Below, one piece after another: positions 1,878 through 48,175 of a stretch of DNA of 51,781 nt (positions are counted from its first letter, which is position 1; each line of letters begins with the position of its first letter). Origin of the DNA: an uncultured Alphaproteobacteria bacterium. Lineage in GTDB: Bacteria; Pseudomonadota; Alphaproteobacteria; Rs-D84. The stretch lies in NCBI GenBank assembly GCA_905236005.1, contig CAJONJ010000044.1, forward strand, positions 1-51,781. Direction: 5' to 3'. The notes below the pieces were generated by a model. It was not told the DNA's origin and did no database searches. It was given only the letters and a program-made list of their open reading frames with translations. A program made the position numbers and the translations under genes.

Positions 1878-1915
1878 TTGAAATCCTATTATTTTTACAG
1901 CCAAAGGATTATAAC

Positions 1916-2371
1916 ATGATTTTATCAGATTACAAGGATTTTCCACGAATTGGTCGTATTTTAGGACTGGATTGGGGTGCCAGACGGTGTGGTGTTGCTG
2001 TATCAGATGAAAAACACACTTTTGTTTTTGAAAGACCGCAAATAAATATCAAAAATCAACAAGATTTGGTCAAAGCGATTATGCAGCTGATTGATGAAGA
2101 AAAGCCAGTCGGTATTGTGATTGGTTTGCCTTTGCATGTTGATGGTTCAGATTCAGAAACAACTGTTCAGGTCAGGGCATTTGCAGATAAATTGTCTGAA
2201 CAAACAGATTTGCCAGTGATATTTATAGAAGAAAATTTAACCAGTGCTATGGCTGAACAAGAGATGGGACAAAAATCTTGGGTTAAAAAGAAACCAGAAC
2301 TGGATTCTGTATCAGCCAGAATTATTTTAGAAAATGCGATTGCAATGTTGAAAAGACCAACACAAGCATAG
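1916..2371 (+). CDS. ruvX: YqgF/RuvX-family putative pre-16S rRNA nuclease (Holliday junction resolvase-like)
   Basis: N-terminal motif ILGLDWGARRCGVAVSD and a size of about 150 aa; start trimmed to MILSDYKDF to avoid overlap with gatC. Confidence 0.88.
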   Translation: MILSDYKDFPRIGRILGLDWGARRCGVAVSDEKHTFVFERPQINIKNQQDLVKAIMQLIDEEKPVGIVIGLPLHVDGSDSETTVQVRAFADKLSEQTDLPVIFIEENLTSAMAEQEMGQKSWVKKKPELDSVSARIILENAIAMLKRPTQA

Positions 2372-2489
2372 ATAAATATTTTATTATAATCGGTCATACA
2401 AATAAGGTTGAAAACTGAAACAGACAAAACATTATAAAAATTATCATGATTTTTATTTTGCGATTTGTGATGCAAAAACAACAAAAAGA

Positions 2490-2771
2490 ATGCAACAGGT
2501 TATCGATTCCTGTGAAAATATTGATGTAACAGGTAATAAATATGGTTTTACAGCATTGATGTGTGCGGTATATGCTGGAAATAAAAAAGTGGCAAAACTA
2601 CTTATTGAAAGTGGTGCAAATCCAGAAGCAAAGGACATTAGTGGCGACACTGTGTTAGTTCTTGCACCACAAGGTGAGATTAAAGCGATGGTGTTAAGGG
2701 CTATTGTGATAAAATATTGGCAAGAAAAACGTTTAACTCGTATCAATAAATCACGGGATTTATCAAGATAA
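2490..2771 (+). CDS. Small ankyrin-repeat protein
   Basis: GFTALMCAVYAGNKKVAKLLIESGANPEAKDISGDTVL matches the ankyrin repeat consensus (G-TaLh-A...G...vv.lLl..GA); followed by a terminator. Confidence 0.7.
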   Translation: MQQVIDSCENIDVTGNKYGFTALMCAVYAGNKKVAKLLIESGANPEAKDISGDTVLVLAPQGEIKAMVLRAIVIKYWQEKRLTRINKSRDLSR

Positions 2772-2777
2772 TAAAAC

Positions 2778-2804
2778 AAAAAAACTGATTTCATCAGTTT
2801 TTTT
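2778..2804. terminator. Bidirectional rho-independent terminator
   Basis: A-run, stem actgat/atcagt with ttc loop, T-run; lies between convergent genes. Confidence 0.75.
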
Positions 2805-2851
2805 GTTATGTTTTATGTAAAATACATTATTTAATTTTGTAACAAATGATT

Positions 2852-3898
2852 TTAGTCATTTGTGGTTTCGTCTGGAATATTCCCATCAGAAGACAGCAAC
2901 ACTGCAATCCAACGTGTTGATTTGAATTGTGCGGTTGTAATATATATGCCCGCCAAAATTGGAACACTGAAAAACATTCCTGCGATTCCCCAAATCATAC
3001 CCCAAAATACCAAATTGATAAGTATAGCCAAAGTTGAAATATTTAAAGTTTTACCTGTCAGTTTTGGATCTAAAATATTACCGAATATTGTTTCTGTGGC
3101 AACCAAAGCAATCGCTGTGAATACTGGTAAATGCCATGTGTCACCGCTGATGAAAGCATATGCGATTGGCATGGCACAAGCCAAAATAGACCCCAACGTT
3201 GGAATATAATTTAATATGAAAATCATAAATGCCCAAACACTGGCAAATTCCAAGCCTATTATTTTTAAAGCTATGTAAGCAAATATACCAGTTGCAGCAG
3301 AAATAAACGTTTTTATAAATAAATATTTTTTCATGTGTTCATCAATGCTGTTCAAAATGTAGTGTAATTTTTTAGCTTTGATTTTTTGAACTGGTAAAGA
3401 ATCTATTTTTTTCCCAAAAGAATTTTGTTCTATGAACATGAATATCAAATATATGATGACCATACCGGTTGATGTTGCAATACCGGCCAAAGAGGATGCG
3501 ATATATGTAGCAATATGGGGCAGGTTAGGTATTAAATTTAAATCCAAACCAATTCCAATTTTTGTTGAAATGTATTTGCTGAATTCTAACAGTTTTTGTT
3601 GCAAAACGGGTGTCGCACTGTATAGTTCCCAAAACATAGGTTTTATTTGCGTTGCAAACAAAAATATAATTCCACCAATTGTCGCAAATGCCAATATATT
3701 TGATAACCAAGTGTAAATCCTAGGATGAAGTTCACACGATTTTTCATCGGATTTATAACATGGCATTATTCGTCTGTAATAAGAAGCAATAGCATTTAGT
3801 AGATACCATACAAATGCAGCAAACAAGATTGGAATAAATAACGGACGTCCAATCCACAGACAAAATATCAAAGCTAGTAATGTTATAAATCCGTGCAT
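2852..3898 (-). CDS. AI-2E family (PerM/YhhT-like) transporter
   Basis: 348-aa polytopic membrane ORF with the family-typical C-terminal region NILDPKLTGKTLNISTLAILINLVFWGMIWGIAGMFFSVPI. Confidence 0.82.
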   Translation of the reverse strand: MHGFITLLALIFCLWIGRPLFIPILFAAFVWYLLNAIASYYRRIMPCYKSDEKSCELHPRIYTWLSNILAFATIGGIIFLFATQIKPMFWELYSATPVLQQKLLEFSKYISTKIGIGLDLNLIPNLPHIATYIASSLAGIATSTGMVIIYLIFMFIEQNSFGKKIDSLPVQKIKAKKLHYILNSIDEHMKKYLFIKTFISAATGIFAYIALKIIGLEFASVWAFMIFILNYIPTLGSILACAMPIAYAFISGDTWHLPVFTAIALVATETIFGNILDPKLTGKTLNISTLAILINLVFWGMIWGIAGMFFSVPILAGIYITTAQFKSTRWIAVLLSSDGNIPDETTND

Positions 3899-3926
3899 GA
3901 TGTTTCCCTGTTGTTAAAGTTGTTTA

Positions 3927-4817
3927 TTATCTGATAACCATTTTCATAAACACAAGTAATAATCTGATGAACATTACAGACATTACGATGTTCATAATAA
4001 TACCTGTCCAAATATACCAATTGTTCATTTGTTTTGAAAAATTCTTTTGAACGATTGATTTCCAAAACATATAAATAGCAAACAAGAATAAAGTGAACAC
4101 AGATGATTCTATGTGTTTTGAAAATAACATTTGTGCAAATACGAACAATACCAAGAACGTAAATAACGTGTTATTTTGATTTGCTAAAACCCATTTGTTA
4201 AATCTTGCATACCATTTTGATTTAATATTCAAATATGTTTGTTGTTTTGTGTCTGCGGTTATATAACCTGGCATCCATGTCAGCATGAAACAAAATGGCA
4301 TTGTTAAAACAATTTTCCATTTTGAAAAACCCATCGCCACAGCACGTTTGAATTTTACATAAATGTTTGATATCCACAATCCCAGTAAATATACACCAGT
4401 CATATACCAAAGAATTTTCATGCTGTATGTAAACCATGGGGATACGGTAGATTGAGGAACGTTTGTCATCACAGGTGATGTTATGACCCCCATATCAGTG
4501 TGTTTGGTTATTGTTAACCATGCTGCAAATAAAATCAAAGATGTAATTTTGTAGCCATTTATAACAGCAACAAAATCATCGTGGTACATTTTATGATTTG
4601 GTAAATGTTTTATTAAATCCATAACCGCAAACCAAAAAATAACCATAGTAGCAATCATAGTGATTGTATCAAGGTGAGCAAGGTTCATTATTGTTGGAAT
4701 ATATGTTATACCAACCAGTATTGCACCAGTGATTAACATCCATAAAGCGAATCGAACAGGACTTTTAAATAACCAGGTTCTAAGGTTTGTTTTTGAATTA
4801 GAATTTTTTTGTATCAT
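3927..4817 (-). CDS. Polytopic membrane protein of unknown function
   Basis: 296-aa ORF with multiple hydrophobic segments; 25 nt downstream of sufC on the same strand; no recognisable motif. Confidence 0.55.
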   Translation of the reverse strand: MIQKNSNSKTNLRTWLFKSPVRFALWMLITGAILVGITYIPTIMNLAHLDTITMIATMVIFWFAVMDLIKHLPNHKMYHDDFVAVINGYKITSLILFAAWLTITKHTDMGVITSPVMTNVPQSTVSPWFTYSMKILWYMTGVYLLGLWISNIYVKFKRAVAMGFSKWKIVLTMPFCFMLTWMPGYITADTKQQTYLNIKSKWYARFNKWVLANQNNTLFTFLVLFVFAQMLFSKHIESSVFTLFLFAIYMFWKSIVQKNFSKQMNNWYIWTGIIMNIVMSVMFIRLLLVFMKMVIR

Positions 4818-4842
4818 TATAGCATCCTTTCTTTCAATGTTG

Positions 4843-5523
4843 TTATTGTATCACAATTTTCCCATTATCCAAAGTAGTTGTTTTTGTTATTTTAACATTA
4901 TTAGTAAAATTATCTTGGTGAGATATAAACAAAAATGTTGTTTTTGGCATATTGTTTATTGTGTCCGCAATTTGTTTTTGAACATCTTTGTCTGCACCAG
5001 AATCTGGTTCATCTAAGATAGCAAGTTTTGGTTGAGTCAAAATCAATCTCAGTAACATAATACGCTTGCGTTCGCCACCGGAAAAACCAACGTTTACAGA
5101 ACGATTTAACCAATCTTGGGGGATGTTTAATTGTTCACGTGCGGATTCAAGTTTTTCTAAAAATTCACCCATAGATAAATTTTTGCCTGTATTATAATGG
5201 GTGTGGGCAATCATTGAATGTTTTAGAAAACTTAACAATGTTAAACCTGGTATTTCTGGAACATTTTGTGCCCCCAGAAAGATTCCTTGTAAAGCACGAT
5301 TTGTTGCATTTTCATTTGTTATGTCGTTGCCGTTAAAAATAATTTTACCTTTGTCTATTTTGTATAATGGGTTGCCAGCTATGGTGTTTACCAATGTTGA
5401 TTTACCGGAACCATTATGTCCGGCTAATCTGTGACGTTCACCAGATTTAATATTCATATTTATATCTTGTAACAAAATTTTGTTATCCATAGATACACAA
5501 AGATTTTTAATTTCTAATATCAT
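4843..5523 (-). CDS. sufC: Fe-S cluster assembly ATPase SufC
   Basis: Walker A GHNGSGKSTL, ABC signature FSGGERKR, Walker B LAILDEPDSG; 1 nt downstream of sufB. Confidence 0.95.
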   Translation of the reverse strand: MILEIKNLCVSMDNKILLQDINMNIKSGERHRLAGHNGSGKSTLVNTIAGNPLYKIDKGKIIFNGNDITNENATNRALQGIFLGAQNVPEIPGLTLLSFLKHSMIAHTHYNTGKNLSMGEFLEKLESAREQLNIPQDWLNRSVNVGFSGGERKRIMLLRLILTQPKLAILDEPDSGADKDVQKQIADTINNMPKTTFLFISHQDNFTNNVKITKTTTLDNGKIVIQ

Positions 5524-5524
5524 T

Positions 5525-6868
5525 TTACGATTCTTTTTTTAATGCCATTTGTATCAGTTGCTTTGATTCTACCAAAAATTCCATAGGTAATCTAGAAATT
5601 ATGGGTGATGCTTGTGAACCAACAATCAATGCAGTTGCTTCGTCTGTATCTATACCACTTTGTTCCAGGAATAATAAACTGTTTGCATCAATTGCACCAG
5701 TGGTCGCTTCGTGGGATTGTTGATTAGTTGCGTTTGAATGAATAATAGTTGGAATAGTATTAGCTGTGGCGGTACTTCCTATAATTCTGCTGTCGCATTT
5801 GCAAGCATTTATACTGTGTTTACCGTTAAATGAAACCAAACTGCGAAATGTTTGTTTGGATTTATCAGTAGCAACACCATAGGATATTATATTAGATTTT
5901 GTGTTGTTACCAATATGCAGCATTTTTGTTCCTGTGTCTGCTTGTTGTGTGCCACGTGTTATTGTCAGCGAATAAAAATCACTGTGTGAATTATCACCAT
6001 ATAAAATTGTTGATGGGTATTTCCAAGTCATACTGGAACCAATTTCAACTTGTGTCCAATCAAGACCGGCGTTTTTGTAACACTTTCCACGTTTAGTAAC
6101 AAAATTTAATATTCCATTTTTATGAACACCAGATTTGTTGTATACGGCAGAATCTCCTGCGTACCAATTTTGTACAGTTGCATATTTTACATATGCATTA
6201 TCTTTAACAATGATTTCTACGACACCGCTGTGTAATTGATGATTTGGACGACGTGGTGCACTGCATCCTTCCATGTAAGATAAATAAGAACCAGATTCTG
6301 CTATGATTAATGTTCGTTCAAATTGACCAATTTTAGCAGTTTCTATTCTGAAATAACTGGCTAAATCAATTGGACATCGGACATTGTGTGGAATATAAAC
6401 AAACGTTCCGTCGGAAAATACAGCTGCATTTAAAGCGGCAAAAAAATTATCAGTATTAGAAACAACGCTGCCAAGGTATTTACGAATCAATTCGGGATAT
6501 TGAACAACTGCTTCTGATAATGGTAAAAATATAATACCATGTTTTTTTAATTCGTCTGTGTATGATGTATGAACAGATTTGCTGTCAATAACAGTATCTG
6601 TCGCCATACCCAACAAAGCACGCTGTTCAGATTCTGGTAACCCCATTTTTTCGTATGTTGCTTTTAATTCAGAATTATCAATAGGTTTGGATTCGTTATA
6701 ATAATTCAGGTTGTTATAATCAATTGGGGAATAATCTATTTCAGCCCAATGTGGTTCTTTCATTTTTTTCCAAGCTTTGAACGCCGATAACCTCCAATCC
6801 AGTAACCAATCAGGCTCTTTACGCAATTTTGATATTTCACGAATAAGTTTTGCGGTTAATTTTTTCAT
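5525..6868 (-). CDS. sufB: Fe-S cluster assembly scaffold SufB
   Basis: 447-aa ORF with SufB-like C-terminal beta-helix region (ADTGTKMLHIGNNTKSNIISYGVA...) directly preceding sufC. Confidence 0.92.
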   Translation of the reverse strand: MKKLTAKLIREISKLRKEPDWLLDWRLSAFKAWKKMKEPHWAEIDYSPIDYNNLNYYNESKPIDNSELKATYEKMGLPESEQRALLGMATDTVIDSKSVHTSYTDELKKHGIIFLPLSEAVVQYPELIRKYLGSVVSNTDNFFAALNAAVFSDGTFVYIPHNVRCPIDLASYFRIETAKIGQFERTLIIAESGSYLSYMEGCSAPRRPNHQLHSGVVEIIVKDNAYVKYATVQNWYAGDSAVYNKSGVHKNGILNFVTKRGKCYKNAGLDWTQVEIGSSMTWKYPSTILYGDNSHSDFYSLTITRGTQQADTGTKMLHIGNNTKSNIISYGVATDKSKQTFRSLVSFNGKHSINACKCDSRIIGSTATANTIPTIIHSNATNQQSHEATTGAIDANSLLFLEQSGIDTDEATALIVGSQASPIISRLPMEFLVESKQLIQMALKKES

Positions 6869-7405
6869 TTACGATGCAGCTAATGTTTGTGCCTGGGCAA
6901 AAAATGTTAAAGATTGTCCCAACAATCCGTCTGTAAATGTCGTAGATAAAATACCATCTGTATCAGTATTTGCCATGTGTTGTAAAAATTGGTTAGCACG
7001 ATTTAAATAATGTGACACATTGTGTGCGATATTTGAATCCAGTTTAATTGCACGACGTAATTTTTCAAGAACAAATGGATTTTTTGCGTATTCATCCATG
7101 ATTCCGCCCAAGGCACGCCACAATGGATGTTCGGATGTTGTGCGTGGCATGACATCAATGGTAGCCATAATAGGAATCAAATCTTGTAATAAATCTTGGT
7201 AAATAATTTCTGCTTTGTCTGTGGTTTCGTTTACTGAAAATTTGTTTTTTAATACCTGTTGGGTTTTTATTAACAAATTGTATTGCAGAGTCAAATTTTT
7301 AACCATTTGACGTAATTTATTGTTTGTTTGGATTAAAAATACAACAGACACAATGCAACACAAAGTTGTTATTGAAATCAGAATAAAAACAGCAATATTT
7401 TCCAT
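6869..7405 (-). CDS. N-terminally membrane-anchored protein of unknown function
   Basis: 178-aa ORF with one N-terminal hydrophobic helix then a helical or coiled region; abuts the sufB start with no gap. Confidence 0.55.
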   Translation of the reverse strand: MENIAVFILISITTLCCIVSVVFLIQTNNKLRQMVKNLTLQYNLLIKTQQVLKNKFSVNETTDKAEIIYQDLLQDLIPIMATIDVMPRTTSEHPLWRALGGIMDEYAKNPFVLEKLRRAIKLDSNIAHNVSHYLNRANQFLQHMANTDTDGILSTTFTDGLLGQSLTFFAQAQTLAAS

Positions 7406-7509: not shown

Positions 7510-7538
7510 TTGCACAGATTTGGGCAAATTGTTATAAT
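7510..7538 (+). promoter_or_regulatory. Sigma70-type promoter with extended -10 for the secretin array
   Basis: TTGCAC (7510-7515), 17-nt spacer ending in TG-T, TATAAT (7533-7538); about 30 nt upstream of the 7570 start. Confidence 0.55.
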
Positions 7539-7569
7539 TGAGTATAATAATATAAAGAAAGGAAAAAAT

Positions 7570-8451
7570 ATGTTCCGTAAAATGTTTGTTTTTGTTATCG
7601 CAACAGGTGTTGCTGGTATTGCTCAGGCAGCGGGAAAACTGCCTCAGGTTGTTACATCAGAAGTGTTTTATGATTCTGGAAAACAGGTTGAAGAACGTGT
7701 GGAAGAGGTTGAATATGAACCAATAAAGCAGCAAGTTCCTGTTTGGCCAGAAAGGGGTTCTGATGCTGACGTTGAAATTGCGTGTGGCGATATGGGATGT
7801 TCTGATAATGAACCAAAGGTTGTATCAAAGGTTGGTTCTGGGTTGGTTATTGAAAACAATATAATCACACACGGTACTGGTTGGTCTGGTGGTCCAAATA
7901 TTGATAATGGAATTCAAATACCGGCCGGTTTTGATAATGAATGTGAAAATAATGCAGAGATGCCTTTGTTAAGACGTGAAATGCTGGAAGATGATGGTGG
8001 TTCGGTATTGGCTGTATCACGCAGTCCACGTAAAAAATGCAATAAACGTGCAGATTCTTATGCTGTGTTTGCAGAACGTGCTGGATTTACAGCTGAAAAA
8101 ACTTGCAACAAGGCTAAATCTGATGGTGAAGCAGAAATTGAGATTAATGTAAATGAAGACCAAACAGACGAAGAGGCACCAGTTGTTATGCGTGATCAGG
8201 TTCGTTCTTGGGTTGTTGCTAGTGGGCAAACATTACGTCAGGTTTTGCAATCTTGGTGTGATAAGGAAGGTTGGGATTTGGTATGGACGACTTCTCGGGA
8301 ATATCCAATAGAAGCCAGTGCTGTTTTCAAAGGTCGTTTTGTTGATGTGGCATCTGCATTGATTCGTAATTTTGAACGTGCCACACCTGTTCCATATGCA
8401 AAGTTTTACAAAGGTAATCGTGTAATAGTTGTTTCGACATCAGAAGAATAA
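7570..8451 (+). CDS. Secreted TcpQ/PilL-like protein (candidate secretin partner or pilotin)
   Basis: Start trimmed to MFRKMFVFVIATGVAGIAQA (Sec signal peptide). The C-terminal block VRSWVVASGQTLRQVLQSWCDKEGWDLVWTTSREYPIEASAVFKGRFVDVASALI resembles the TcpQ-type domain found in PilL/TcpQ. Confidence 0.68.
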   Translation: MFRKMFVFVIATGVAGIAQAAGKLPQVVTSEVFYDSGKQVEERVEEVEYEPIKQQVPVWPERGSDADVEIACGDMGCSDNEPKVVSKVGSGLVIENNIITHGTGWSGGPNIDNGIQIPAGFDNECENNAEMPLLRREMLEDDGGSVLAVSRSPRKKCNKRADSYAVFAERAGFTAEKTCNKAKSDGEAEIEINVNEDQTDEEAPVVMRDQVRSWVVASGQTLRQVLQSWCDKEGWDLVWTTSREYPIEASAVFKGRFVDVASALIRNFERATPVPYAKFYKGNRVIVVSTSEE

Positions 8452-8479
8452 TTGTTATCGCACCGTAGGAGATAGAATA

Positions 8480-10093
8480 ATGAGAGTCCGTTTTAACATA
8501 TTATATATAGGATTTTTGTTGGCGGGATTTTTGTCTGGTTGCACGTTAAAAGAATCTGCCAAAGTTTCTGCGGTTGTAGATAATAATTTTGTACAGGCTT
8601 ATGAAGCTTTTGAAATGGCAAAAAATCCACGTGCAAAGGTATCTAGTGGCGATACTGTTTCTATGTCAGAAGGTGTTTGGTTGGGTAATAAATCAACCAT
8701 TTTGGAACATAAAAATACTTTGCCGTCTAAATTTGAAACAGATACAGGTATCACTATATTGTTAAATGAACCTGTAACTTTGCAGGTGTTGGCAAACGAT
8801 ATCAATACTATCACTGGTATTCCTGTAAAAATAGATAATCAGGTTGATGTTGAAAAATTGAAAAAGACAGTGGATGTTGCTTATACAGGTAAATTATCTG
8901 GTTTGTTATCTCAGATTGCAACTGATTTAGATTTATTATGGTATTATGACAAAGATTCCATAGTGTTTTATGAAACAGAGACCAGAACATATACTTTGTA
9001 TGCATTGGGTACAGATGTTTCATATCAATCTTCTGTGCAGACAGACGATGGAAATCAGGTTTCTTTGGAATCTACTTTGAAAGAATGGGACGAAGTTGAA
9101 TCTACTATTACTTCCATAGTATCAGCATCTAAAAATTCTCAATTTACAGTTTCACGCAGTTTGGGAACAATAACTGTGACTGCACCACCATCTGTGTTGA
9201 ATCGTGTTTCTGATTACATTGCAAAACAAAACAAAAGATTATCTCAGTTGGTAACAATAGATGTTAAAGTTTTACAGGTATCTTTGTCTAATGAATCTGC
9301 TTTCGGTTTGAATTTGACTGCGGCTATTAATTCTGCATCTGGATTGAATATTGTTGCAAATCCAAAGAATAATTTAGCCACCACAGAAGCCAGTTCTATG
9401 AATATTGCTGTGTTATCTAATGATGTTGCAAAAGCAGCAACTGGTATTTCAGACACTTATTCAAATGATCAGATAATGAATGGTTCTATGGCACGTGTTG
9501 CAGGCACAGATGCTTTGATAGAGGCTTTGGCAAAGCAGGGTAAAGTGTCTTTGGTAACAAACGTTGGTGTTACAACACGTAATAATCGGGTTGCACCAGT
9601 AACTAATACCAGAACAACTGGATATATAAAACGTTTTGAATCACGTAATTTTACAACTGTTGAATCCAGTACAGTTGACCAAGATAATTTGGAAACAGGT
9701 TTTTCAATGCAGTTGTTGCCAAATATTTTAGAAAACGGTAAAATTTTATTGTTGTTTAAAATGTCAATTCGTGAATTGTTAAGAATGTCCACTCAGACTA
9801 TCGGTGAACAGATGAAGGTTACATTACAATTACCAGAAGTAGAAGAACGTTCTTTTATGCAAGAAGTTATCATGGAATCTGGTCAAATGTTGGTTGTATC
9901 TGGATTTGAAAAACAGAAGAATAATGATACACGTTATGGTTTGGGTGATCCTGATTTTATGGCATTGTCTGGTTCTCGTGAAACAGCTGCATCTCGTGAA
10001 GTGTTGGTTGTTATTCTGACACCACAGGTTTTAGTCAGTCCGATGGATGCAGAAAAGAATATTCAGCAACATTGGGGTGCCCCATTGAATTAG
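8480..10093 (+). CDS. Outer-membrane lipoprotein secretin, PilN (type IVb)-like
   Basis: AGGAGA RBS then MRVRFNILYIGFLLAGFLSGC (lipobox). N-domain-like region (VTLQVLANDINTITGIPVKID). C-terminal secretin domain (VTIDVKVLQVSLSNESAFGLNL ... LLPNILENGKILLLFKMSI ... SGQMLVVSGFEKQ ... REVLVVILTPQVL). Confidence 0.82.
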   Translation: MRVRFNILYIGFLLAGFLSGCTLKESAKVSAVVDNNFVQAYEAFEMAKNPRAKVSSGDTVSMSEGVWLGNKSTILEHKNTLPSKFETDTGITILLNEPVTLQVLANDINTITGIPVKIDNQVDVEKLKKTVDVAYTGKLSGLLSQIATDLDLLWYYDKDSIVFYETETRTYTLYALGTDVSYQSSVQTDDGNQVSLESTLKEWDEVESTITSIVSASKNSQFTVSRSLGTITVTAPPSVLNRVSDYIAKQNKRLSQLVTIDVKVLQVSLSNESAFGLNLTAAINSASGLNIVANPKNNLATTEASSMNIAVLSNDVAKAATGISDTYSNDQIMNGSMARVAGTDALIEALAKQGKVSLVTNVGVTTRNNRVAPVTNTRTTGYIKRFESRNFTTVESSTVDQDNLETGFSMQLLPNILENGKILLLFKMSIRELLRMSTQTIGEQMKVTLQLPEVEERSFMQEVIMESGQMLVVSGFEKQKNNDTRYGLGDPDFMALSGSRETAASREVLVVILTPQVLVSPMDAEKNIQQHWGAPLN

Positions 10094-10134: not shown

Positions 10135-11100
10135 ATGAAAATATCAATGAAACATTGTTTGGGGTTTCTTTTAGCATTATGTTTGGTATTTCCATTGTAT
10201 GCAGATGATTCTGAATTGATACGCAAAGCAACAGAAATGTATGAAGCGACACGTATAACGTGTTCTGGTATATCTGATGAAATCAGTAAAATTTCCAATA
10301 TATCAAAGGCAAATACGGCTGTGACTGCTGTTGGAACGGTTGCTTCGACTGGTGCATTGGCGGTTGGTATTAAAAAATCAGAAGAAGAAAAAGAAATTGA
10401 AGCGTTGATCGTTGAAATATGTAAAAAAGGGGGCTGTACGAGAGCTGGTGTTGAAAAAATGTCAGATGAACAGTTTTTTAATGAAGTGGTGCTAGGATTA
10501 GAACGCCTGTATGAATTGAAACAAAAGATAGAAAAATCCAAAACGCTTGGTAATTGGCGAACAGGGTTGATGGCTGGAACGATTGGAACAAATCTGGCAT
10601 CAGCGATAATGTCCGGGATAAATATAAAACAATCAGATTTAATACAACATATAACCGCATGTAATAAAATGGTGGAAAGCATACAAGATATAGAACTGGA
10701 AATAAAACGTGCTGGGATAAATCCGTATGAACATCCGGTGGTGACAAAAATCAGTAATATTCGCACATGGTGTAATAAATTAAATACCAAAGATGTAGAA
10801 AAAATAGAAAACCGAATGAAAGGTGTGATGGGAACATCCATAGCAGGTGGTGTAATTGGTATAGTCGGTGTTGGCACCAGTGCCGCTGCGAACAGTGATA
10901 AATATATGGCGATAGAAAAGAAAGTTAGATTATCAGAAAAAGACAAAAAAACAGAACACGCATTAAATACGACAGCAAATGTGATGGCTGGTGCAAACAT
11001 AGCGACAGGTGCTGTTGAAACAGGATTAAATATATCGTTGATAACGTTGACCAAAAAAATGATTAAACAGGCACAACGTTGTGAAGAAATGTTAAAATGA
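10135..11100 (+). CDS. Secreted 4-Cys helical protein with G/A/S/T-rich segments (unknown family, member A)
   Basis: Signal peptide MKISMKHCLGFLLALCLVFPLYA; full-length paralog of 46314-47363; its stop overlaps the next gene start (ATGA). Confidence 0.7.
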   Translation: MKISMKHCLGFLLALCLVFPLYADDSELIRKATEMYEATRITCSGISDEISKISNISKANTAVTAVGTVASTGALAVGIKKSEEEKEIEALIVEICKKGGCTRAGVEKMSDEQFFNEVVLGLERLYELKQKIEKSKTLGNWRTGLMAGTIGTNLASAIMSGINIKQSDLIQHITACNKMVESIQDIELEIKRAGINPYEHPVVTKISNIRTWCNKLNTKDVEKIENRMKGVMGTSIAGGVIGIVGVGTSAAANSDKYMAIEKKVRLSEKDKKTEHALNTTANVMAGANIATGAVETGLNISLITLTKKMIKQAQRCEEMLK

Positions 11101-12188
11101 TGAAACGATTTGTATTATTTTTATTAGTGTGTTTGATGCCTTCTTTATCTTGTGCTGATGACACAGGAAATCTTGATCTAGATGATATAGGAGAGTTAAT
11201 TCTGAAGAAAACGGTAAAGCACGCAATAATAGACGATAGTGTTGATATCGATTCCGGTGTGTTTCATGATCGTTGTGAAAATAATGGGATTTATCGTGAT
11301 GAATATACAATTGATAGACGATGTTATATTACTGATGAACAAAAAAAACAATATCCATATAATGCAGTTGTAGGTTTGGTGGAAGAAGTTCTCTTCTCAT
11401 ACGGTTTAGATGGAGGAATTAAAGAGAATTATGATGATGTATATTGTACAGGTACAATTGTTCAAAATCCACAAGATATGCAGTTATATATGTATACAGC
11501 ATCACATTGTGTAAGCTATTTAACTGGTGATAATGCGGTTGTACAATTGCAAGATGGGGCAAAAATAAAGGTGCGACGAGTTAAAAATAGGGTCGGAGTA
11601 AACCTTGGTGATGTTGCTGTATACAAAATTCCAGATGATTATGTTGACAATGTTCCTTTTGCTACTGTGGATAAGAATGCTGTATTTGAGAATGCACAAA
11701 GTTATAATCTTATCGGTTATGGTACATTATCAATTATGAGTGATAAACAAATACACCAAGCAAAAGAAAAATATGCATCATTTTTTGAGATAACAGAATC
11801 AGAATTATATGCAGATGAGGAACTTATAAATAAATTAGCTTATGAGATATTACCAATGGACAGCAGGCTAAAAGGTTCATTTGATTGTAATTTGTCGCCT
11901 GATTTCCATAGTACAGCTTGTCAGGCGTGGAAAGGAAATTCTGGTGGACCGATTTTTGATAAAAATGGCAATATAGTTGCTGTTCAAGCACAGGGGTGGG
12001 CACCAATAATATCATTGAGAGATGAATTTTATGCATCAACTTTTTTTGATGGTCACGAACCAATATTGCCAGTGATTGATGATTCTGAACAATGGAAAGA
12101 TGTTAAAGACTGTATTAAACTTTGTGATCAAACAAAAAGTTGTAATGTTATGGATTGTTTGGCAAAAATGCCAAAACCAGAAATGTAA
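11097..12188 (+). CDS. Secreted trypsin-like (S1 family) serine protease, paralog 1
   Basis: Signal peptide MMKRFVLFLLVCLMPSLSCA; catalytic His in CTGTIV...YTASHCV, Asp in GDVAVYKIP, Ser in WKGNSGGPIFDKNGNIVAV. Confidence 0.85.
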   Translation: MMKRFVLFLLVCLMPSLSCADDTGNLDLDDIGELILKKTVKHAIIDDSVDIDSGVFHDRCENNGIYRDEYTIDRRCYITDEQKKQYPYNAVVGLVEEVLFSYGLDGGIKENYDDVYCTGTIVQNPQDMQLYMYTASHCVSYLTGDNAVVQLQDGAKIKVRRVKNRVGVNLGDVAVYKIPDDYVDNVPFATVDKNAVFENAQSYNLIGYGTLSIMSDKQIHQAKEKYASFFEITESELYADEELINKLAYEILPMDSRLKGSFDCNLSPDFHSTACQAWKGNSGGPIFDKNGNIVAVQAQGWAPIISLRDEFYASTFFDGHEPILPVIDDSEQWKDVKDCIKLCDQTKSCNVMDCLAKMPKPEM

Positions 12189-12218
12189 TGGCGGGTGCTG
12201 TGTCGAAACAGTATTAAA

Positions 12219-13586
12219 ATGATGAAACGAATTGTATTATTGTTATTAGTGTGTTTGATGCCAGTGTGCATGTTTTGTAATTCAGCCAAAGGAAAACCGT
12301 TGAAAATAAAAATAAGTTATCATGATCAATATGAGTGGGACATTATCGATTTGGTATCGGATAAATCCACCCAAATATCTAATGGGGTATTGATAGATAG
12401 ATGTTTGGAAAACGGCAGATTCCAACAAAATTATACAATTGATAGACGTTGTTATATTACAGACGAACAAAAAAAAGAATTTCCATATAATGCGATTGTT
12501 GGTGTGTCTGTTGATGGGGGGTGGTGTACAGGGACCCTGGTTAAAGATAATGCTGATGAATTATATGTTTATACCGCCACACATTGTGTAAAGAACCCAA
12601 ATGCCCCAATAACTGTAACATTACAAGATGGAACGACATTTTCCGCAACAACAAAATATGATAAAATGGGATCTGATGAGTATAAAGATGTTGCTGTATT
12701 AAAAATTCCATGGAAAAATAAAATATCATTAGAATTTATAAAAAGATTACCATTGGCAAAAATGGGACAATTTAATTCTGATGATATTTTTAATGTCATT
12801 GGTTATGGTTCTTTAGCGATTCTGAATGATAAGACGATACATGATATAAAACAAAAATATGCAAAACATATGGATATTGATGAAAATGAAATAGAATCAG
12901 ATAATGAAATTTATAAAAAGTTTGAAAAATTCCTGCGTGATTATACAGAGCTATTTGAAGATGATAAGAACCTGAAGGGTTCTTTTGATTGTTCTTTACG
13001 TGACAATGCTTCTGTTTGGCAAGGTAGAAATCAAACAGATTGTCAAGTGGCCCAGGGAAGTTCTGGTGGACCTGTTTTTGATAAAGATAATAATTTGGTT
13101 GCTGTTCTGACAAGGGGATATGGATTGCAAAATAATAGATATGCTACAACGTCCCTTGGTGGGGTAGAACCTGTATCTGATGTCCAAAATCAGATATATG
13201 ATTATAAGCTGATGGTGTATTCGGATTACGGCTGTTACATAGAAACAAAAGATGAAAAACACAATATTGTAGGTGACCAATTGTGTGAAGAAAAGAAACC
13301 GCCTAGGAGCTTTGATAATAGTTGGTGGGTAGCCGTTAAGGGTGGCAAGACCACATGGGGTGTTAGCCACTGTTATAACAAGGATAAATATCCCGGTGCC
13401 ACAAGCATTAATTTTTCTATCATTGGTATGGAACGTGGTGAGTATTGCTGGTGTAGATTTATTAATCAGCTAAGTAAAACTCAAGAGCAAATGGCATATT
13501 TTTCAGGTGTTGTTTATGACGATAATCAGACATGTGTAAAAAATTGTGCTTATGCGTGTGCTAAATGGTTTTTGAGTAAAGATTAA
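12219..13586 (+). CDS. Secreted trypsin-like (S1 family) serine protease, paralog 2, with Cys-rich C-terminal extension
   Basis: Start trimmed to MMKRIVLLLLVCLMPV; triad motifs YTATHCV, KDVAVLKIP, AQGSSGGPVFDKDNNLVAV; about 125 extra C-terminal residues containing 8 Cys. Confidence 0.85.
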   Translation: MMKRIVLLLLVCLMPVCMFCNSAKGKPLKIKISYHDQYEWDIIDLVSDKSTQISNGVLIDRCLENGRFQQNYTIDRRCYITDEQKKEFPYNAIVGVSVDGGWCTGTLVKDNADELYVYTATHCVKNPNAPITVTLQDGTTFSATTKYDKMGSDEYKDVAVLKIPWKNKISLEFIKRLPLAKMGQFNSDDIFNVIGYGSLAILNDKTIHDIKQKYAKHMDIDENEIESDNEIYKKFEKFLRDYTELFEDDKNLKGSFDCSLRDNASVWQGRNQTDCQVAQGSSGGPVFDKDNNLVAVLTRGYGLQNNRYATTSLGGVEPVSDVQNQIYDYKLMVYSDYGCYIETKDEKHNIVGDQLCEEKKPPRSFDNSWWVAVKGGKTTWGVSHCYNKDKYPGATSINFSIIGMERGEYCWCRFINQLSKTQEQMAYFSGVVYDDNQTCVKNCAYACAKWFLSKD

Positions 13587-13597
13587 ATATATGGACT

Positions 13598-13625
13598 AAA
13601 AAAACATCCGATCGGATGTTTTTTT
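13598..13625. terminator. Bidirectional rho-independent terminator
   Basis: A-run, palindrome catccga/tcggatg, T-run, between the convergent protease gene and rpsT. Confidence 0.8.
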
Positions 13626-13648
13626 AATTGATAAAAGCACAGCAAGAA

Positions 13649-14647: not shown

Positions 14648-15490
14648 ATGAAATATTTTGTATCCGTGTTTGTTGTGTTGTTGTCATGCTTTGGGGCTGG
14701 GGCGGCACAGCATGGACGTCCTGCGATGGGTAATGGTCGCAGTATGGTTTCTGCACCTCGTTATACTGCGTCTGTTAATCAATTAAATGGACGTGGCAAT
14801 GCTTTGGGAACCAACGTTGTTACAACGGACGATTCGGAACCTGAACCAGAACCAAAACCAGAGCCAAAACCTGAACCAGAACCTGAACCAGAAGTTGATA
14901 TGCGTGAAGCAGAACGCAATGCGTGTATCAGCAATAACATTGGTGTTGGAAATACTTTTGTTTGGGCATCTAGATACAGTGACACGTCTAATTATGCTAC
15001 TATGGTTGAAGATGTTGAACATCCTGAAAATAATGTATGTTTTGTGCGTGTTGAATTGGGATCCAGTAATGAATCTAGAATCAAGGTTGCTGATATTGCA
15101 CCAAAATATTTTATGTGGGATGAAACCATTAAATGCGGTAGTTGGGTCAGTAAAAAAGAAATGGAAAAACGTATTTTGGATGCCAAAAAAGGTGTTCGTA
15201 TTGGTGGTATAGTTGCCAGTACTGTTGGTGGTATGGGACTGGGTGTTGGTGCGATGGAATTGTTTGGAAATAAATTGATTGGTGGTAAAGTAGAAGGACA
15301 AAAATCTCTGAAAGATAAAGATTTATACAAAGCACAATTGTTGGCTATGAAAAAAAAGGGTGGCTCTGATTATGATGAAATAAAAACTGCTTTGGATGTC
15401 ATGGTTGCCGAATGTAAGAGGAATGGCAACACGATTTCAACAGATGATTGTGATTTATATAGGTATTTGCAAACGGAATTGGAAAAATAA
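14648..15490 (+). CDS. Secreted protein with (E/K)P repeat linker and glycine-rich hydrophobic segment (unknown; possible distant member of the 4-Cys family)
   Basis: Signal peptide MKYFVSVFVVLLSCFGAGAA; SEPEPEPKPEPKPEPEPEPE linker; IGGIVASTVGGMGLGVGAMELFG segment; Cys-containing acidic C-terminus. Confidence 0.65.
   Translation: MKYFVSVFVVLLSCFGAGAAQHGRPAMGNGRSMVSAPRYTASVNQLNGRGNALGTNVVTTDDSEPEPEPKPEPKPEPEPEPEVDMREAERNACISNNIGVGNTFVWASRYSDTSNYATMVEDVEHPENNVCFVRVELGSSNESRIKVADIAPKYFMWDETIKCGSWVSKKEMEKRILDAKKGVRIGGIVASTVGGMGLGVGAMELFGNKLIGGKVEGQKSLKDKDLYKAQLLAMKKKGGSDYDEIKTALDVMVAECKRNGNTISTDDCDLYRYLQTELEK
14837..14893 (+). repeat. In-frame GAACCW/AAACCW hexanucleotide repeat encoding (E/K)P dipeptides
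   Basis: gaacctgaaccagaaccaaaaccagagccaaaacctgaaccagaacctgaaccagaa read directly; lies inside the CDS 14648-15490. Confidence 0.9.
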
Positions 15491-15505
15491 AGTAGAGGTA
15501 GGCAA

Positions 15506-16069
15506 ATGAAAAAAATTTTGATAATGTCTTTTATGTTGTTACCAATGATAGCGAATGCTGCACCGGCTGTAAAGTTGTTGGGTAACAATAATCCGTCTGT
15601 TGCTGGAACCAAGACTGTTGTTCCTGCAAAAGTAACACCGGCCAGAGCAGCTGCTTTGGCAAAGACAGGAAACGCAGCACGTGTTGGGACTTTGCGTGCA
15701 AAATCTGCGACAACTAATGCTGGGACTGGTTCTACTGCTCGTTTTCCAGTAATTATTCCAACAAAAGTTTATACTACGAGTAATGCACCAAAAGCAACAG
15801 GTGGCGGTACAACAATTGTTCCAGCAGATACATCTGCAATAGAAGGTAAGTTAGATGATTTAACAGATCGTATAGGTGATTTAGAAAATACTGTTAATGT
15901 GACCCATAACACACAAATAAACAACAATACTAACAATATACGCCAAATAAATACCGATTTGGGAGATGATCCAAGATTTGATTCTGTGGTTGTTGGTGAA
16001 GAACATTTACATACTCGCCAAGGTTTACCAGAACATCGTGCATGGATGTGGATTGAATTACCAGAATAG
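15506..16069 (+). CDS. Secreted protein with Ala/Thr/Lys-rich N-half and coiled-coil C-half (unknown)
   Basis: Signal peptide MKKILIMSFMLLPMIANA; heptad-like EGKLDDLTDRIGDLENTVNV; 15 nt downstream of the previous gene. Confidence 0.6.
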   Translation: MKKILIMSFMLLPMIANAAPAVKLLGNNNPSVAGTKTVVPAKVTPARAAALAKTGNAARVGTLRAKSATTNAGTGSTARFPVIIPTKVYTTSNAPKATGGGTTIVPADTSAIEGKLDDLTDRIGDLENTVNVTHNTQINNNTNNIRQINTDLGDDPRFDSVVVGEEHLHTRQGLPEHRAWMWIELPE

Positions 16070-17168: not shown

Positions 17169-17432
17169 AACTGCGAAAATCAAGGAAAAAAACGAATCGT
17201 TGTCAAAAAATAAATGTTCAAAAATAAATCAACATTTGATTGCAAATAGAAATAAATCTTATAGATTGTTTGTTGTAGTCGGGTGGTTGATTAAATCAAT
17301 CAAAAACAAAAAGTGAGAGAAGAGTAAGCGGCATAAATATCAATGATGATTGGTGTTTATGTGCAGGGTGTTTTACACACTAAAAATGCCAACGCAGGAA
17401 ACTCTTTTAATACAAGGAAAGGAGCAAACGAC

Positions 17433-18710
17433 ATGCAAGCAGCAACAAAAAAAATTGTAAACACAGAATCAATTAAAGATGCAATTGCAAACAAAATAGA
17501 TTCTGTTGGATTTACCTCTTGGATTGCACCTTTGCAATTCAGTGTTGTTGCGGGATGTTTGAATTTGGTTGCTCATAATCAATTTGCTGCGGATTATGTT
17601 AAAAATTCATATGGTGAAATTCTTGCTGATGTTGCTGCTGGTTTTGGTTTAACTGTAAATATTTCTGTTCGTTCTGCAACACCTGTTGTGAATACAGCTA
17701 ATGATAATGTTGTATGTGAATTTGTGCCTGAAAATAAAAAAGCATTTGTAAAAAAACAAAATGGTTTTGATGCATTTATATGTTCTGATGAAAATATGTT
17801 TGCTGTTGCAGCATGCAAAAAAATTGCATTAGGTGATGCATCTTTTTCACAATTATTTATATATGGACCTGCTGGGTGTGGTAAATCTTTGTTGGCATCT
17901 GCCATTTGTGGCGAATCGGCTGGACGTGTTGTAATGATGTCTGGTGGCCAATTCGTTGCAGATTTTACACGTAGCTTGCGTGATAAAACGATATTTTCTT
18001 TCAAAGATTTTTGTCGTAATTGCGATACTTTTATTTTGGATGATGTTTGTGCGTTGGCTGGTAAACGTGCAACCACAGATGAATTTTTACAATTGATTAT
18101 GGATTTACATAATGCTGGTAAAAATATTGTGTTGACTGCAAATGTTGCACCAAACGCATTAAATGGTTTTGACAGACGTATACAATCTTTGTTTGCATCT
18201 GGTTTGGTTGTAGATTTGGCTGTGCCAAATGCACATGTTCGTAAACAAATGTTGATTCGTGGTGGTGTTGATGCAAATGTGGCAGATGAATTATCTAAAC
18301 GTATTGCTGGTGATGGTCATTTAGTAAATGGTGTAATAAATAAAATAAAAACATATTCTGAATTGATGGGTGAACGTGTAGATATGGATGTGGCTGCTAA
18401 ATTATTGGGCAATACATTGGAAAAGAATAAAACACCAATGGCGATGGTCAAAGCAATGTGTGAAAAAATGTGTGTATCTTATGATGAAATTTGTGGTAAT
18501 TCACGCACACGTCGTTTGGTTCGTGCACGTCAAATAATGATGGCAGCATTAAAACAAGCAACAGGTTTATCTTTGTCTGAAATTGGTAATGTTTGTGGTG
18601 GTCGTGATCATGCAACAGTTGTTTATGCATTGAATCAAATTGAAAATCAGAAAGAATCAGATTTAGTATTGAATGCAGAAATAGATGACATGATAAAATT
18701 GTGCAAATAA
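17433..18710 (+). CDS. dnaA: Chromosomal replication initiator DnaA (divergent)
   Basis: Start trimmed to MQAATKK after the GGAG RBS; AAA+ core (GPAGCGKSLL, FILDDVCAL) and C-terminal DNA-binding domain (RRLVRARQIMMAALKQATGLSLSEIGNVCGGRDHATVVYA). Confidence 0.92.
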   Translation: MQAATKKIVNTESIKDAIANKIDSVGFTSWIAPLQFSVVAGCLNLVAHNQFAADYVKNSYGEILADVAAGFGLTVNISVRSATPVVNTANDNVVCEFVPENKKAFVKKQNGFDAFICSDENMFAVAACKKIALGDASFSQLFIYGPAGCGKSLLASAICGESAGRVVMMSGGQFVADFTRSLRDKTIFSFKDFCRNCDTFILDDVCALAGKRATTDEFLQLIMDLHNAGKNIVLTANVAPNALNGFDRRIQSLFASGLVVDLAVPNAHVRKQMLIRGGVDANVADELSKRIAGDGHLVNGVINKIKTYSELMGERVDMDVAAKLLGNTLEKNKTPMAMVKAMCEKMCVSYDEICGNSRTRRLVRARQIMMAALKQATGLSLSEIGNVCGGRDHATVVYALNQIENQKESDLVLNAEIDDMIKLCK

Positions 18711-46313: not shown

Positions 46314-47363
46314 ATGAAATCACCAATTATTGCAATTATTCCAGCATTTATACTGGGGTTGGTCAGTTTTCCAGCGAATGCGACTGTGTATGATTTGGAC
46401 ACAGCAATCAGCAAAGTTCGTGAAAATTGTTCGGGGTTGGAATCTAAGATGGATCATCTGAAAATGATGGCTGGTATAAACACAGGTATTAATGCGGTTG
46501 GAACGGTTGCTGGTGGTGTTGCGTTGGGAACCGGTATCGTAAAAGCACAAAAAGACGCAAAAAGTCTGGCTTTAACAAAATTGATAGCCGTAAAATTAGG
46601 AGAATTAAAGATAGATAACAAGTCGACACTAAAATTGGAAGATGCGGATACATCTAAAAAACAAGAGGATTTTATAAACGCATTGCGTGCAAATTATGAA
46701 AAATATACAGAAAAAGGGGATTTTAAACTAGATGAAGATACTTTGTATGGTGTTTTCAGCCCGGGTAGTGGGGTTGTATCGTTTACGGCTGCCACAACGG
46801 GGAAAATTGATTTAAAAGCTGAAAAGGCAAAGGTTGATAAAGAATCCAAGATGTTGGGTAATGTTCGGACTGGATTATTGGCAACAAATGCTGTGACCCA
46901 GGTGGCTGGTGCTGTGATTTCCAGTCAAAACAAAGCAAAGGGTAATTTAAAAGAACAAATAGATAGATGTATAGCGGCAACTGACGATTTAAAAGACAGT
47001 ATGATGCAGGCACGTATTGAAAACCAAGACACAACCCAGGCAAAACAAATTTTGGATGCTTGTGGTGAATACAGATATGCAGATTTATCAAAAATAAATA
47101 ATTTGGCAACAGGTGCAACCGTTTCATCCAGTATTGGTGCAGCCAGTGCTGGTGTTGGAACAGTAACCAGTGCAATGGCAAACACAGATGCAACACGTCA
47201 TGGCAAAGTATCAACTGAACAGGGTTTAAATACAGCGTCTAATGTGTTGTCTGGTGTTTCTACTGCAACGTCAGCAGTATCCACAATATTAAACGGTGTT
47301 CAAATTGCAACAATCAAAAAAGTTGTATCCACAGCACAAAATTGTGAAAAGGAGTTACAATAA
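46314..47363 (+). CDS. Secreted 4-Cys helical protein with G/A/S/T-rich segments (unknown family, member B)
   Basis: Signal peptide MKSPIIAIIPAFILGLVSFPANA; collinear with 10135-11100 including four conserved Cys; its stop overlaps the next start (TAATG). Confidence 0.7.
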   Translation: MKSPIIAIIPAFILGLVSFPANATVYDLDTAISKVRENCSGLESKMDHLKMMAGINTGINAVGTVAGGVALGTGIVKAQKDAKSLALTKLIAVKLGELKIDNKSTLKLEDADTSKKQEDFINALRANYEKYTEKGDFKLDEDTLYGVFSPGSGVVSFTAATTGKIDLKAEKAKVDKESKMLGNVRTGLLATNAVTQVAGAVISSQNKAKGNLKEQIDRCIAATDDLKDSMMQARIENQDTTQAKQILDACGEYRYADLSKINNLATGATVSSSIGAASAGVGTVTSAMANTDATRHGKVSTEQGLNTASNVLSGVSTATSAVSTILNGVQIATIKKVVSTAQNCEKELQ

Positions 47364-48175
47364 TGAAAAAATATTTAACTACATTTTTATTGTTATGTGT
47401 GGGATTTATCCCGGCATTAGCCAATGCTGGTTCATCTGATATTTGTTACCAATATGCACCAAGTGCAAAACAGGATTTGATTCAGACAGCAACCAAATTT
47501 TTTGTAGATGATGGTGACGAAAAAGCTTTTGACTATTTTTTGGATAAAATGAACGAATCTAAGGCTGTAACAGGAATTCCGGGTATAACATGTGGTCAAA
47601 TTGTAGAGGTGTGTTTGGTTGCTAAATGGTCTGGTGCGAAATGTGAAAATTTTGGTAAGGAATTAATCACATTGTGGAAAAAAACAGCTGATAATAATAC
47701 TCTTAAAACAAAATCAAATACATATCAGGAAGGCGACAAAACAGTAACAGAAGTTGAACATCATTTTGTCATTCGTGAATTTTGGCGTGTGTTTGATGAA
47801 AACGATAATGAAATAGATATTTGTACTATTAATGATGCGCAAACCATTGATATAATAGTTAAAAATTTCAATCATATAGAACCTCGTACAGCGTGGAACA
47901 ATTGGCAAAATTGTTTGACGTCTTTTGGTTATTCGTTTGATGGCGATAAAATAACCAAAAATGTCGCACGTAAAAGTGGAAAAATGGAAGCAACATCTGA
48001 TGTATGTAAAGGTATGAATGAACAAACTATACAACAAATGTGTGATCGTTATAATGAAACAGTCAAGAATAGAAATATAGCAGGTAGTACATACTCATTA
48101 GAATATGGAACATACGGAGAATGTTATGAAGCATATGGGTATTCTTTGAGTGCGTTTGGCTGTAAAAAAAGCTAA
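47363..48175 (+). CDS. Secreted Cys-rich protein of unknown function
   Basis: Signal peptide MKKYLTTFLLLCVGFIPALANA; ten Cys in the mature part; translationally coupled to the upstream gene. Confidence 0.6.
   Translation: MKKYLTTFLLLCVGFIPALANAGSSDICYQYAPSAKQDLIQTATKFFVDDGDEKAFDYFLDKMNESKAVTGIPGITCGQIVEVCLVAKWSGAKCENFGKELITLWKKTADNNTLKTKSNTYQEGDKTVTEVEHHFVIREFWRVFDENDNEIDICTINDAQTIDIIVKNFNHIEPRTAWNNWQNCLTSFGYSFDGDKITKNVARKSGKMEATSDVCKGMNEQTIQQMCDRYNETVKNRNIAGSTYSLEYGTYGECYEAYGYSLSAFGCKKS

Follow-up and report, generated by a model that had tools for sequence, protein, structure and literature searches.

Exported four-helix-bundle proteins coupled to secreted proteases and cysteine-rich proteins in two-gene cassettes of gut Alphaproteobacteria

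Introduction

The coupling of a helical accessory gene to a variable exported cargo is an arrangement of a known kind. It is seen in the adaptor–effector pairs of the type VI secretion system (T6SS; Eag and DUF4123 proteins) and the type VII secretion system (T7SS; LXG proteins with Lap), and in enzyme/steric-chaperone operons such as that of the lipase-specific foldase (Lif). Here, we describe two such gene pairs in a contig of an uncultured alphaproteobacterium of the order Rs-D84 (GenBank assembly GCA_905236005.1, contig CAJONJ010000044.1, positions 1 to 51,781 of the forward strand; this whole stretch of 51,781 nucleotides is referred to as the window). Two of its genes, A (10135..11100) and B (46314..47363), encode paralogous helical proteins with four invariant cysteines, and each overlaps the start of a gene for a second exported protein. 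An earlier note on the same DNA had drawn attention to the pairs, which it read as a constant helical component with a variable secreted cargo, and had not recognised the family. As far as the libraries and literature searched show, neither the family nor the N-terminal module that is common to some of its partners has been described.

By analogy, the module most resembles in function the two kinds of system named above. As in the adaptor–effector pairs, a conserved helical gene lies immediately upstream of the cargo gene, and genomes hold multiple cassettes at varying sites; in one of the two subtypes described below (B-type) the cargo likewise joins a conserved N-terminal module to variable C-terminal regions, in proteins of 204–1118 amino acids (aa). 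The cassettes differ in that both proteins carry Sec signal peptides, that no T6SS, T7SS or conserved secretion machinery adjoins them at the loci retrieved for neighbourhood comparison (the best 79 of the 432 family loci in species-representative genomes, one genome per GTDB species) and that the commonest cargo is an ordinary S1 protease and not a toxin domain. The adaptors have no sequence relation to the family, and no immunity gene was recognised, no systematic search for immunity genes having been made. Lif is, like the proteins described here, an all-helical envelope protein that is co-transcribed, and often translationally coupled, with a secreted hydrolase, its periplasmic binding partner. 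The order of the two genes is the opposite, Lif being encoded downstream of its enzyme and the helical protein upstream. Lif is also lipase-specific and has an uncleaved N-terminal anchor helix, whereas the present family has a cleavable signal peptide and diverse partners, and no homology between the two was detected with Pfam or NCBIfam.

Three further comparisons are more distant. In the MIB–MIP systems of Mollicutes (a binding protein with an S1-like DUF31 protease), too, a serine protease and a protein without enzymatic function form multi-copy tandems in animal-associated bacteria with reduced genomes. DUF31 (E 0.0023) and the MIP protease model (E 0.78) match the second protease of the A cluster (12216..13586) at sub-threshold level, falling far short of the curated cut-offs. 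The helical protein has no relation to MIB, and many cassettes have partners that are not proteases. In shape, the helical protein loosely recalls the α-pore-forming toxins of the ClyA family (XaxAB/YaxAB, AhlABC/SmhABC, Hbl/Nhe and MakA), which are likewise all-helical, elongated, about 300–350 residues long and soluble yet endowed with membrane-prone segments, and which were the most frequent, though weak, fold matches. There is no significant sequence or fold similarity, and the partner here is an enzyme and not a paralogous toxin subunit. The glycine-zipper families (the SlyB/Rick_17kDa type and the N-terminus of VacA) share a small-xxx-small spacing of Gly, Ala and Ser residues. None of their Pfam models matched A, B or the product of a third gene (14648-15490) at E ≤ 1, and none recurred over 147 family members; the family has no lipobox, and its four long helices, putatively stapled by disulfides, contrast with a short two-helix hairpin.

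The lineage itself gives the comparison its context. Rs-D84, of which Candidatus Enterousia is a genus, is an uncultured lineage that is widespread in gut and rumen, with genomes of <1 Mb that lack the tricarboxylic acid cycle, respiration and standard transporters; amino-acid and peptide transporters are not recognisable, and the bacteria, whose lifestyle is enigmatic, are suspected of depending on a partner organism (PMC12306168; PMC13196213).

Results

Two paralogues and their family

Gene A, on the forward strand, encodes a protein of 321 aa with a Sec signal peptide at residues 1–23 (cleavage after LYA); its start codon at 10135 is preceded by an AAGAGGA site 6 nucleotides (nt) upstream and agrees with the starts of the homologues. 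Gene B, on the same strand, encodes 349 aa with a signal peptide at residues 1–23 (cleavage after ANA) and has a promoter-like site of its own at 46254-81, 3′ of a tRNA-Pro gene and a hairpin. The signal peptides are cleavable, with an A-x-A-type site and Ala at position −1. The earlier note had described the two products as collinear over their whole length, and they are indeed end-to-end paralogues (29% identity, E 2e-25 in BLASTP), in which every aligned block that it quoted was found.

The four conserved cysteines that the note had reported (C43, C176, C213 and C316 in the numbering of A, which is used throughout) are invariant in an alignment of 32 sequences and are retained in all 438 complete members. 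The other invariant columns of the 32-sequence alignment include many Gly, Ala, Ser, Thr and Asn residues, which fall within four segments rich in small residues (G/A/S/T/V/N). In A these segments span residues 56–80, 135–163, 228–253 and 277–304 and consist of 62–80% small residues, whereas the spacers between them are 30–52% charged, an alternation that had also been noticed from the sequence of the pair. Within the segments, Gly, Ala and Ser recur in small-xxx-small spacing (for example G238, G242, G245, S249 and A252), which implies very close packing of the helices. A variable hairpin occupies residues 81–134 of A and contains the subtype-specific C97 and C103; B has the same four segments and four cysteines, with a variable region of 100 residues that is devoid of Cys.

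An exhaustive HMMER profile search of 1.84 billion proteins returned 479 representatives (50% identity) at E ≤ 1e-3, which defines a family of ~480 sequence clusters. With A and B as queries, word-indexed searches gave 525 and 550 clusters (90% identity), respectively, and no cluster carries a name beyond 'hypothetical'. All of the 79 retrieved loci originate from Candidatus Enterousia or from unclassified, mostly alphaproteobacterial, metagenome-assembled genomes, nearly all of them labelled gut, rumen or faecal, and the homologues come from the rumen or gut of goat, sheep, yak, horse, deer, mouse and human. The family is multi-copy, several assemblies contributing two or three loci to the best 79, and at some loci two cassettes stand in tandem. 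There was no match to a plasmid. Only two contigs classed as viral (L092 and L093, from IMG/VR) carry the family, in both cases as a cassette at 4995-7297. There the cassette adjoins phage-like genes (a baseplate/gpD-like protein, a DNA methyltransferase and a PLD-family nuclease), and it is possible that it is prophage cargo or host flank.

The family is absent from the annotation libraries that were consulted: A and B have no significant match in Pfam, NCBIfam, PADLOC or PHROGs, and a profile search of PDB sequences with the family gave nothing relevant. Pfam searches over 147 aligned members returned recurrent matches that were sub-threshold and compositional only (P5CR_dimer in 56 of 147, CD20 in 19, MotA_ExbB in five, and DUF6944), and the N-terminal extensions of long members matched no Pfam model. 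At one further locus (L082), a gene at 1441-2193 encodes a helical protein of 250 aa that lacks a signal peptide and has family-like small-residue segments (KKSEQNLKTGAIITGTGTAIG); it lies 4 nt upstream of a gene for a protein of 1109 aa with the partner N-terminal module (the pair spanning 1441-5526). The 250-aa protein may be a very remote or degenerate relative; its hhalign probability is 0.9%.

Fold of the helical protein

The AlphaFold model of A, calculated with 32 sequences, is all-helical, with helices at residues 46–97, 111–161, 166–192, 218–252 and 268–320. With both the 32- and the 147-sequence alignments the mean predicted local distance difference test score (pLDDT) was 71 and the predicted template-modelling score 0.48–0.53; in the model of mature B (147 sequences) the N- and C-terminal helices and the middle hairpin have a confidence of >90. 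Foldseek comparisons of two models with the PDB, and with the viral structures of BFVD, gave generic helical bundles and coiled coils and no significant fold match. The top PDB entries were designed bundles and ClyA-type toxins (E 0.005–0.4, TM-score 0.1–0.3), and the viral list was headed by coiled-coil tail proteins. Although the earlier note had thought of pore-forming partners, none of the Pfam, PDB-profile and Foldseek searches gave a significant match to an α-pore-forming toxin or a glycine-zipper protein.

The topology was resolved by coevolution. Mean-field direct coupling analysis (DCA) of 436 distinct sequences (effective number 276) shows antiparallel ladders between helices I and II (i + j ≈ 218), II and III (≈ 393), III and IV (≈ 528) and I and IV (≈ 361), together with a hairpin within residues 164–227. 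The ladders accommodate 21 of the 30 top couplings, against two expected, a figure that is descriptive since the ladders were defined from the same data; they agree with the AlphaFold helices at 46–97, 111–161, 218–252 and 268–320. The family fold is therefore an up-down-up-down four-helix bundle.

In this bundle the four small-residue segments lie at an equal level and form a belt of ~25 residues. One edge of the belt is marked by a near-invariant polar layer (N60/T61/N163/T296/N299) and the other by a second near-invariant layer (G78/K81/N140/R142/N253/D255/E274/N278/N282). All four invariant cysteines are found at one end of the bundle, and the variable region and the charged 254–276 loop are found at the other. 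Since C43 and C316, and likewise C176 and C213, are in register on the ladders, disulfides C43–C316 and C176–C213 are predicted. A further bond, C97–C103, is expected in A.

The variable region spans 36–296 aligned residues and is longer still in a few members, in which 300–480 extra residues are located exactly there. It contains no Cys in 244 members, two in 200, four in one and a single Cys in only 11; outside the variable region and the conserved four positions, Cys is essentially absent. The conserved and the variable-region cysteines, almost always even in number, thus stand at opposite ends of the bundle, and this parity argues, if indirectly, that both ends are extracytoplasmic, apparently in an oxidising compartment. 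The segments themselves appear too polar for ordinary transmembrane helices: in both A and B the maximum Kyte–Doolittle averages over 19 residues are 1.0–1.5 for all four, and their Wimley–White octanol sums are +1.2 to +5.1 kcal/mol, compared with −5.8 and −7.2 for the two signal peptides. On account of this polarity and of the even number of cysteines at both ends, we read the helical protein as fully exported and soluble, with a semi-polar, tightly packed core that could serve in oligomerisation or in conditional membrane association.

Coupling to the downstream gene

The sequence ATGA (11097-11100) unites the stop codon of A with the start of an S1 protease gene, and TAATG (47361-47365) unites that of B with the start of a gene for a ten-Cys secreted protein, as the earlier note had described; an AAGGAG ribosome-binding site lies inside the last codons of B. 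The generality of this arrangement was assessed in 93 non-redundant family genes from related genomes, 91 of which have at least 300 nt of downstream sequence. A partner was defined as an open reading frame (ORF) on the same strand that encodes 150 aa or more and begins −8 to +23 nt from the stop codon. By this definition 80 of the 91 genes (88%) have an adjacent partner, and in 69 of the 80 (76% of members) the start of the partner overlaps the family stop codon (by the −4 nt arrangement in 53 cases, −1 nt in 13 and −8 nt in three). A signal-peptide-like N-terminus is present in 78 of the 80 partners. These counts strongly support the earlier note's idea of a two-gene cassette.

The cassettes behave as two-gene units that occupy differing chromosomal sites in otherwise syntenic genomes. 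Two genomes that are syntenic with the window from rpsT to uvrC carry a cassette in the dnaA–dnaJ interval, which in the window measures only 113 nt. The genes flanking the cassettes are housekeeping genes, and no neighbour is conserved beyond the two genes.

Partner proteins and subtypes

The partner of A (11097..12188, forward strand) is an exported S1 protease of the Trypsin_2 type with an intact triad (His137/Asp172/Ser282). It is followed on the same strand by the second exported S1 protease (12216..13586), which has a Cys-rich C-terminal extension of ~150 residues and no directly coupled helical gene, and then by a terminator-like hairpin (13595-13628). The partner of B (47363..48175, forward strand; its ATG overlaps the TAA of B) is an exported protein of 270 aa with ten Cys in its mature part and an N-terminal module at residues ~24–130 with the motif GI..i..VC.aA.w...KC..F.

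A profile search identified S1 proteases as 45 of the 80 partners; the remainder are Cys-rich with no Pfam domain. Among the aligned partner proteases, the catalytic His is kept in 42 of 44, Asp in 43 of 44 and Ser in 43 of 44; the full triad is intact in ~40 of 44. Most of them start right after the signal peptide, without a pro-region, and at related loci (e.g. L015 and L004) up to three tandem proteases follow one family gene. The module seen in the partner of B recurs as a region of ~60–100 residues with two invariant cysteines (VC...KC..F) in partners of 204–1118 aa. Among the fetched loci, 13 of the 14 distinct proteins that have it are directly preceded by a family gene; a profile search of a set of 5.8 billion proteins, with a word prefilter that limits its reach, found only four fragments.

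Two subtypes can be told apart by the variable region. A-type members, with two variable-region Cys, have an S1 protease as partner in 41 cases and a small Cys-rich protein in 19, the latter often being followed in turn by a protease gene. B-type members, without variable-region Cys, stand upstream of all 13 N-module partners, and the module was not seen in the protease partners of the A-type. The notion of a constant component with a variable cargo needs refinement, since each of the two subtypes goes with a partner class of its own.

Other genes of the window

The window has a G+C content of ~35% and contains housekeeping genes (gatA, ruvX, sufBC, rpsT, plsY, dprA, dnaA, dnaJ, dnaN, efp, tolB, an AsmA-like gene, lepA and fabF). 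dnaA (17343-18710) and dnaN (27955-29067) lie 9 kb apart, and the GC skew is positive across nearly the whole window, with no clear sign change near dnaA. A class II fructose-bisphosphate aldolase is encoded at 30383-31324 (PF01116, 302 bits), although Rs-D84 genomes reportedly lack this enzyme (PMC12306168).

The product of the third gene (14648-15490) had been linked to the family in the earlier note. Its Gly-rich stretch, its Cys-containing acidic C-terminus and the 15-nt gap to the next gene at 15506 are all literally present, but a relation to the family beyond chance was not confirmed: BLASTP gave E 0.12–0.24, hhalign a probability of 0.4% and the family hidden Markov model −1.1 bits over one stretch of 27 residues. 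The resemblance is confined to one low-complexity segment. In related genomes the gene and its neighbour 15506-16069 stand together between plsY and dprA, as a single-copy pair in conserved synteny, unlike the movable cassettes. The first protein of this exported pair (14648-16069) has EPEPKPEP repeats and one Gly-zipper-like stretch. The second is only 33% identical where housekeeping genes are 77–95% identical, and it is therefore a secreted protein that evolves very fast.

Positions 7510-10093, upstream of A, hold two genes, one for a TcpQ-like protein (PF10671, 66 bits) and one for a PilN-type secretin of type IVb pili (TIGR02520, 255 bits, slightly short of the cut-off of 288). The pair adjoins the suf genes, and there is no further pilus gene in the window. 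A link between this pair and A was considered and rejected, no such homologue being found within 6 kb of any other family gene; nor, in the 79 loci, is there any conserved linkage to a pilus or secretin operon that would place the family among the type IVb pilus-dependent (TcpF-like) factors. Cassette B is directly preceded by the gene for tRNA-Pro(CGG) (46141-46217), 97 nt upstream. An integrase-like ORF (42987-43985) with arm-binding and central domains and no catalytic-domain match lies ~2.2 kb upstream of that tRNA gene. The idea of a mobile island at B was set aside, as the tRNA gene and the integrase-like ORF are near but no att-like direct repeat was found.

Discussion

We propose, with a probability of about 0.4, that A, B and their relatives, a multi-copy and lineage-restricted family of Sec-exported four-helix bundles with predicted disulfide staples, act as carriers for co-translated cargo. 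The helical protein and the exported protein encoded downstream would be made together through translational coupling and would assemble with each other in the periplasm, the helical protein serving as the common carrier or docking subunit. The conserved belt, composed of four in-register helices of ~25 residues, would provide a common means of oligomerisation and/or conditional association with the membrane or envelope. The cargo, whether an active S1 protease or a polymorphic Cys-rich protein, would be bound at the tip of the variable hairpin, beside the cluster of the invariant residues K81/N140/R142/N253/D255/E274/N278. We infer the physical pairing, the cargo-binding site and any membrane activity, and the complex may finally reside in the periplasm, at the cell surface, in vesicles or in a partner cell. 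A carrier is favoured over an inhibitor because of the long members: one of them (761 aa) lacks a downstream partner, which may mean that an insertion in the variable region can replace the separate cargo.

Several observations weigh against such a carrier. Translational coupling by itself proves co-expression only, and 11 of the 91 members (~12%) are solo, among them an orthologue of A with 74% identity that lies between yebC and secB. The association of subtype with partner class is confounded by shared descent. AlphaFold confidence is lowest, at <50, exactly at the four small-residue segments (147-sequence alignment); conserved Asn, Thr and Ser residues abound in the belt, an invariant Arg lies at its lower edge, and its hydrophobicity is by calculation below what an ordinary transmembrane state needs. 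No conserved secretion system stands beside the cassettes, and none of the 79 related loci has the secretin found upstream of A, so that export beyond the periplasm is unsupported. Finally, Rs-D84 bacteria reportedly lack respiratory chains (PMC12306168), which leaves disulfide formation hard to explain.

Four other explanations can be set against the same data. The helical protein may be a periplasmic steric chaperone or inhibitor, which folds the cognate protease or enzyme or keeps it inactive in the manner of a foldase or of a pro-domain acting in trans. The helical gene precedes its partner, to which it is translationally coupled, subtype corresponds to partner class, and proteases that mostly lack a pro-region and have an intact triad would make self-protection in the periplasm useful. 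This explanation is nevertheless unlikely, as the strongest conservation is found in the small-residue belt and the cysteines and not on a partner-specific surface, one subtype serves unrelated partners of 204–1118 aa, solo members and the partner-less member with a long insert exist, no separate helical gene accompanies the second and third proteases within a cluster and no foldase, ecotin or inhibitor family was matched in Pfam or NCBIfam. The existence of solo copies fits a free-standing structural protein of the envelope or surface, such as a coat in the periplasm or on the outer surface, or an oligomeric scaffold, for which coupling would give co-expression and no specific complex. Conservation on all helix faces, which suggests a higher-order assembly, the multi-copy nature of the family in genomes of <1 Mb and the fast change of the variable region are all in keeping with this. 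We nonetheless regard it as distinctly unlikely, because 88% adjacency, mostly with overlap, exceeds the convenience of an operon, N-module proteins are found near-exclusively behind family genes and the cassettes move as two-gene units.

Four in-register segments of ~25 residues with charged flanks could be the tightly packed Gly/Ala-rich transmembrane helices of an integral inner-membrane protein with its N-terminus outside, and such a protein might anchor the partner, form a channel for it or confer immunity to it. This topology would place all four invariant Cys on the periplasmic side, and the weak, recurrent Pfam noise includes helical membrane families (CD20 and MotA_ExbB). It would also, however, make the variable region cytoplasmic, yet that region has paired Cys in ~200 members and a Cys-rich insert of 480 residues in one; with all four segments of both paralogues below transmembrane hydrophobicity thresholds and with invariant Arg and Asn in or at the edges of the segments, we judge it quite improbable. 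A diverged α-pore-forming toxin of the ClyA/Hbl/XaxAB type, which would lyse or permeabilise a partner cell and so let the protease go to work, would account for the all-α fold and the similar length (~300–350 aa). ClyA carries a redox-sensitive Cys pair, and AhlB, ClyA, MakA, HblL1, PaxB/XaxB/YaxA and SmhB recur among the best non-significant Foldseek matches of both models. Those matches have E 0.03–4 (0.03–0.4 for the best), TM-scores of 0.10–0.30 and root-mean-square deviations of >20 Å, from models of only intermediate confidence (pLDDT 71), and there is no match in Pfam (A and B at E ≤ 1; 147 members) or to a PDB sequence. The toxins have a single hydrophobic head (a β-tongue or helical hairpin) on an elongated helical tail, whereas the body of the present bundle is made of four equivalent semi-polar segments. 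We saw no evidence that the helical protein belongs to a pore-forming toxin family, and consider this origin very improbable.

Within the proposal of a carrier, a redox-gated mode of action can be envisaged, which we hold to be improbable as it stands. The disulfides C43–C316 and C176–C213 would lock the soluble form in the periplasm, the strongly reducing gut lumen or contact with a partner cell would open them, and oligomers of the small-residue helices would then anchor or deliver the bound protease or polymorphic effector at the partner membrane. If this were true, it would show how a transporter-poor epibiont with a genome of less than 1 Mb reaches the contents of another cell, and if the helical protein is membrane-active it would represent a new helical architecture among protein delivery systems.

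The family offers testable handles in the two proteins of each cassette, the predicted disulfides and the conserved polar cluster, and defining it together with the partner module would annotate several hundred 'hypothetical proteins'. As an exported, multi-copy and fast-diversifying family that is hard-wired, in a small genome, to proteases and polymorphic Cys-rich proteins, the cassettes are a prime candidate for the machinery that lets these bacteria draw nutrients from other cells or the host, or adhere to them.

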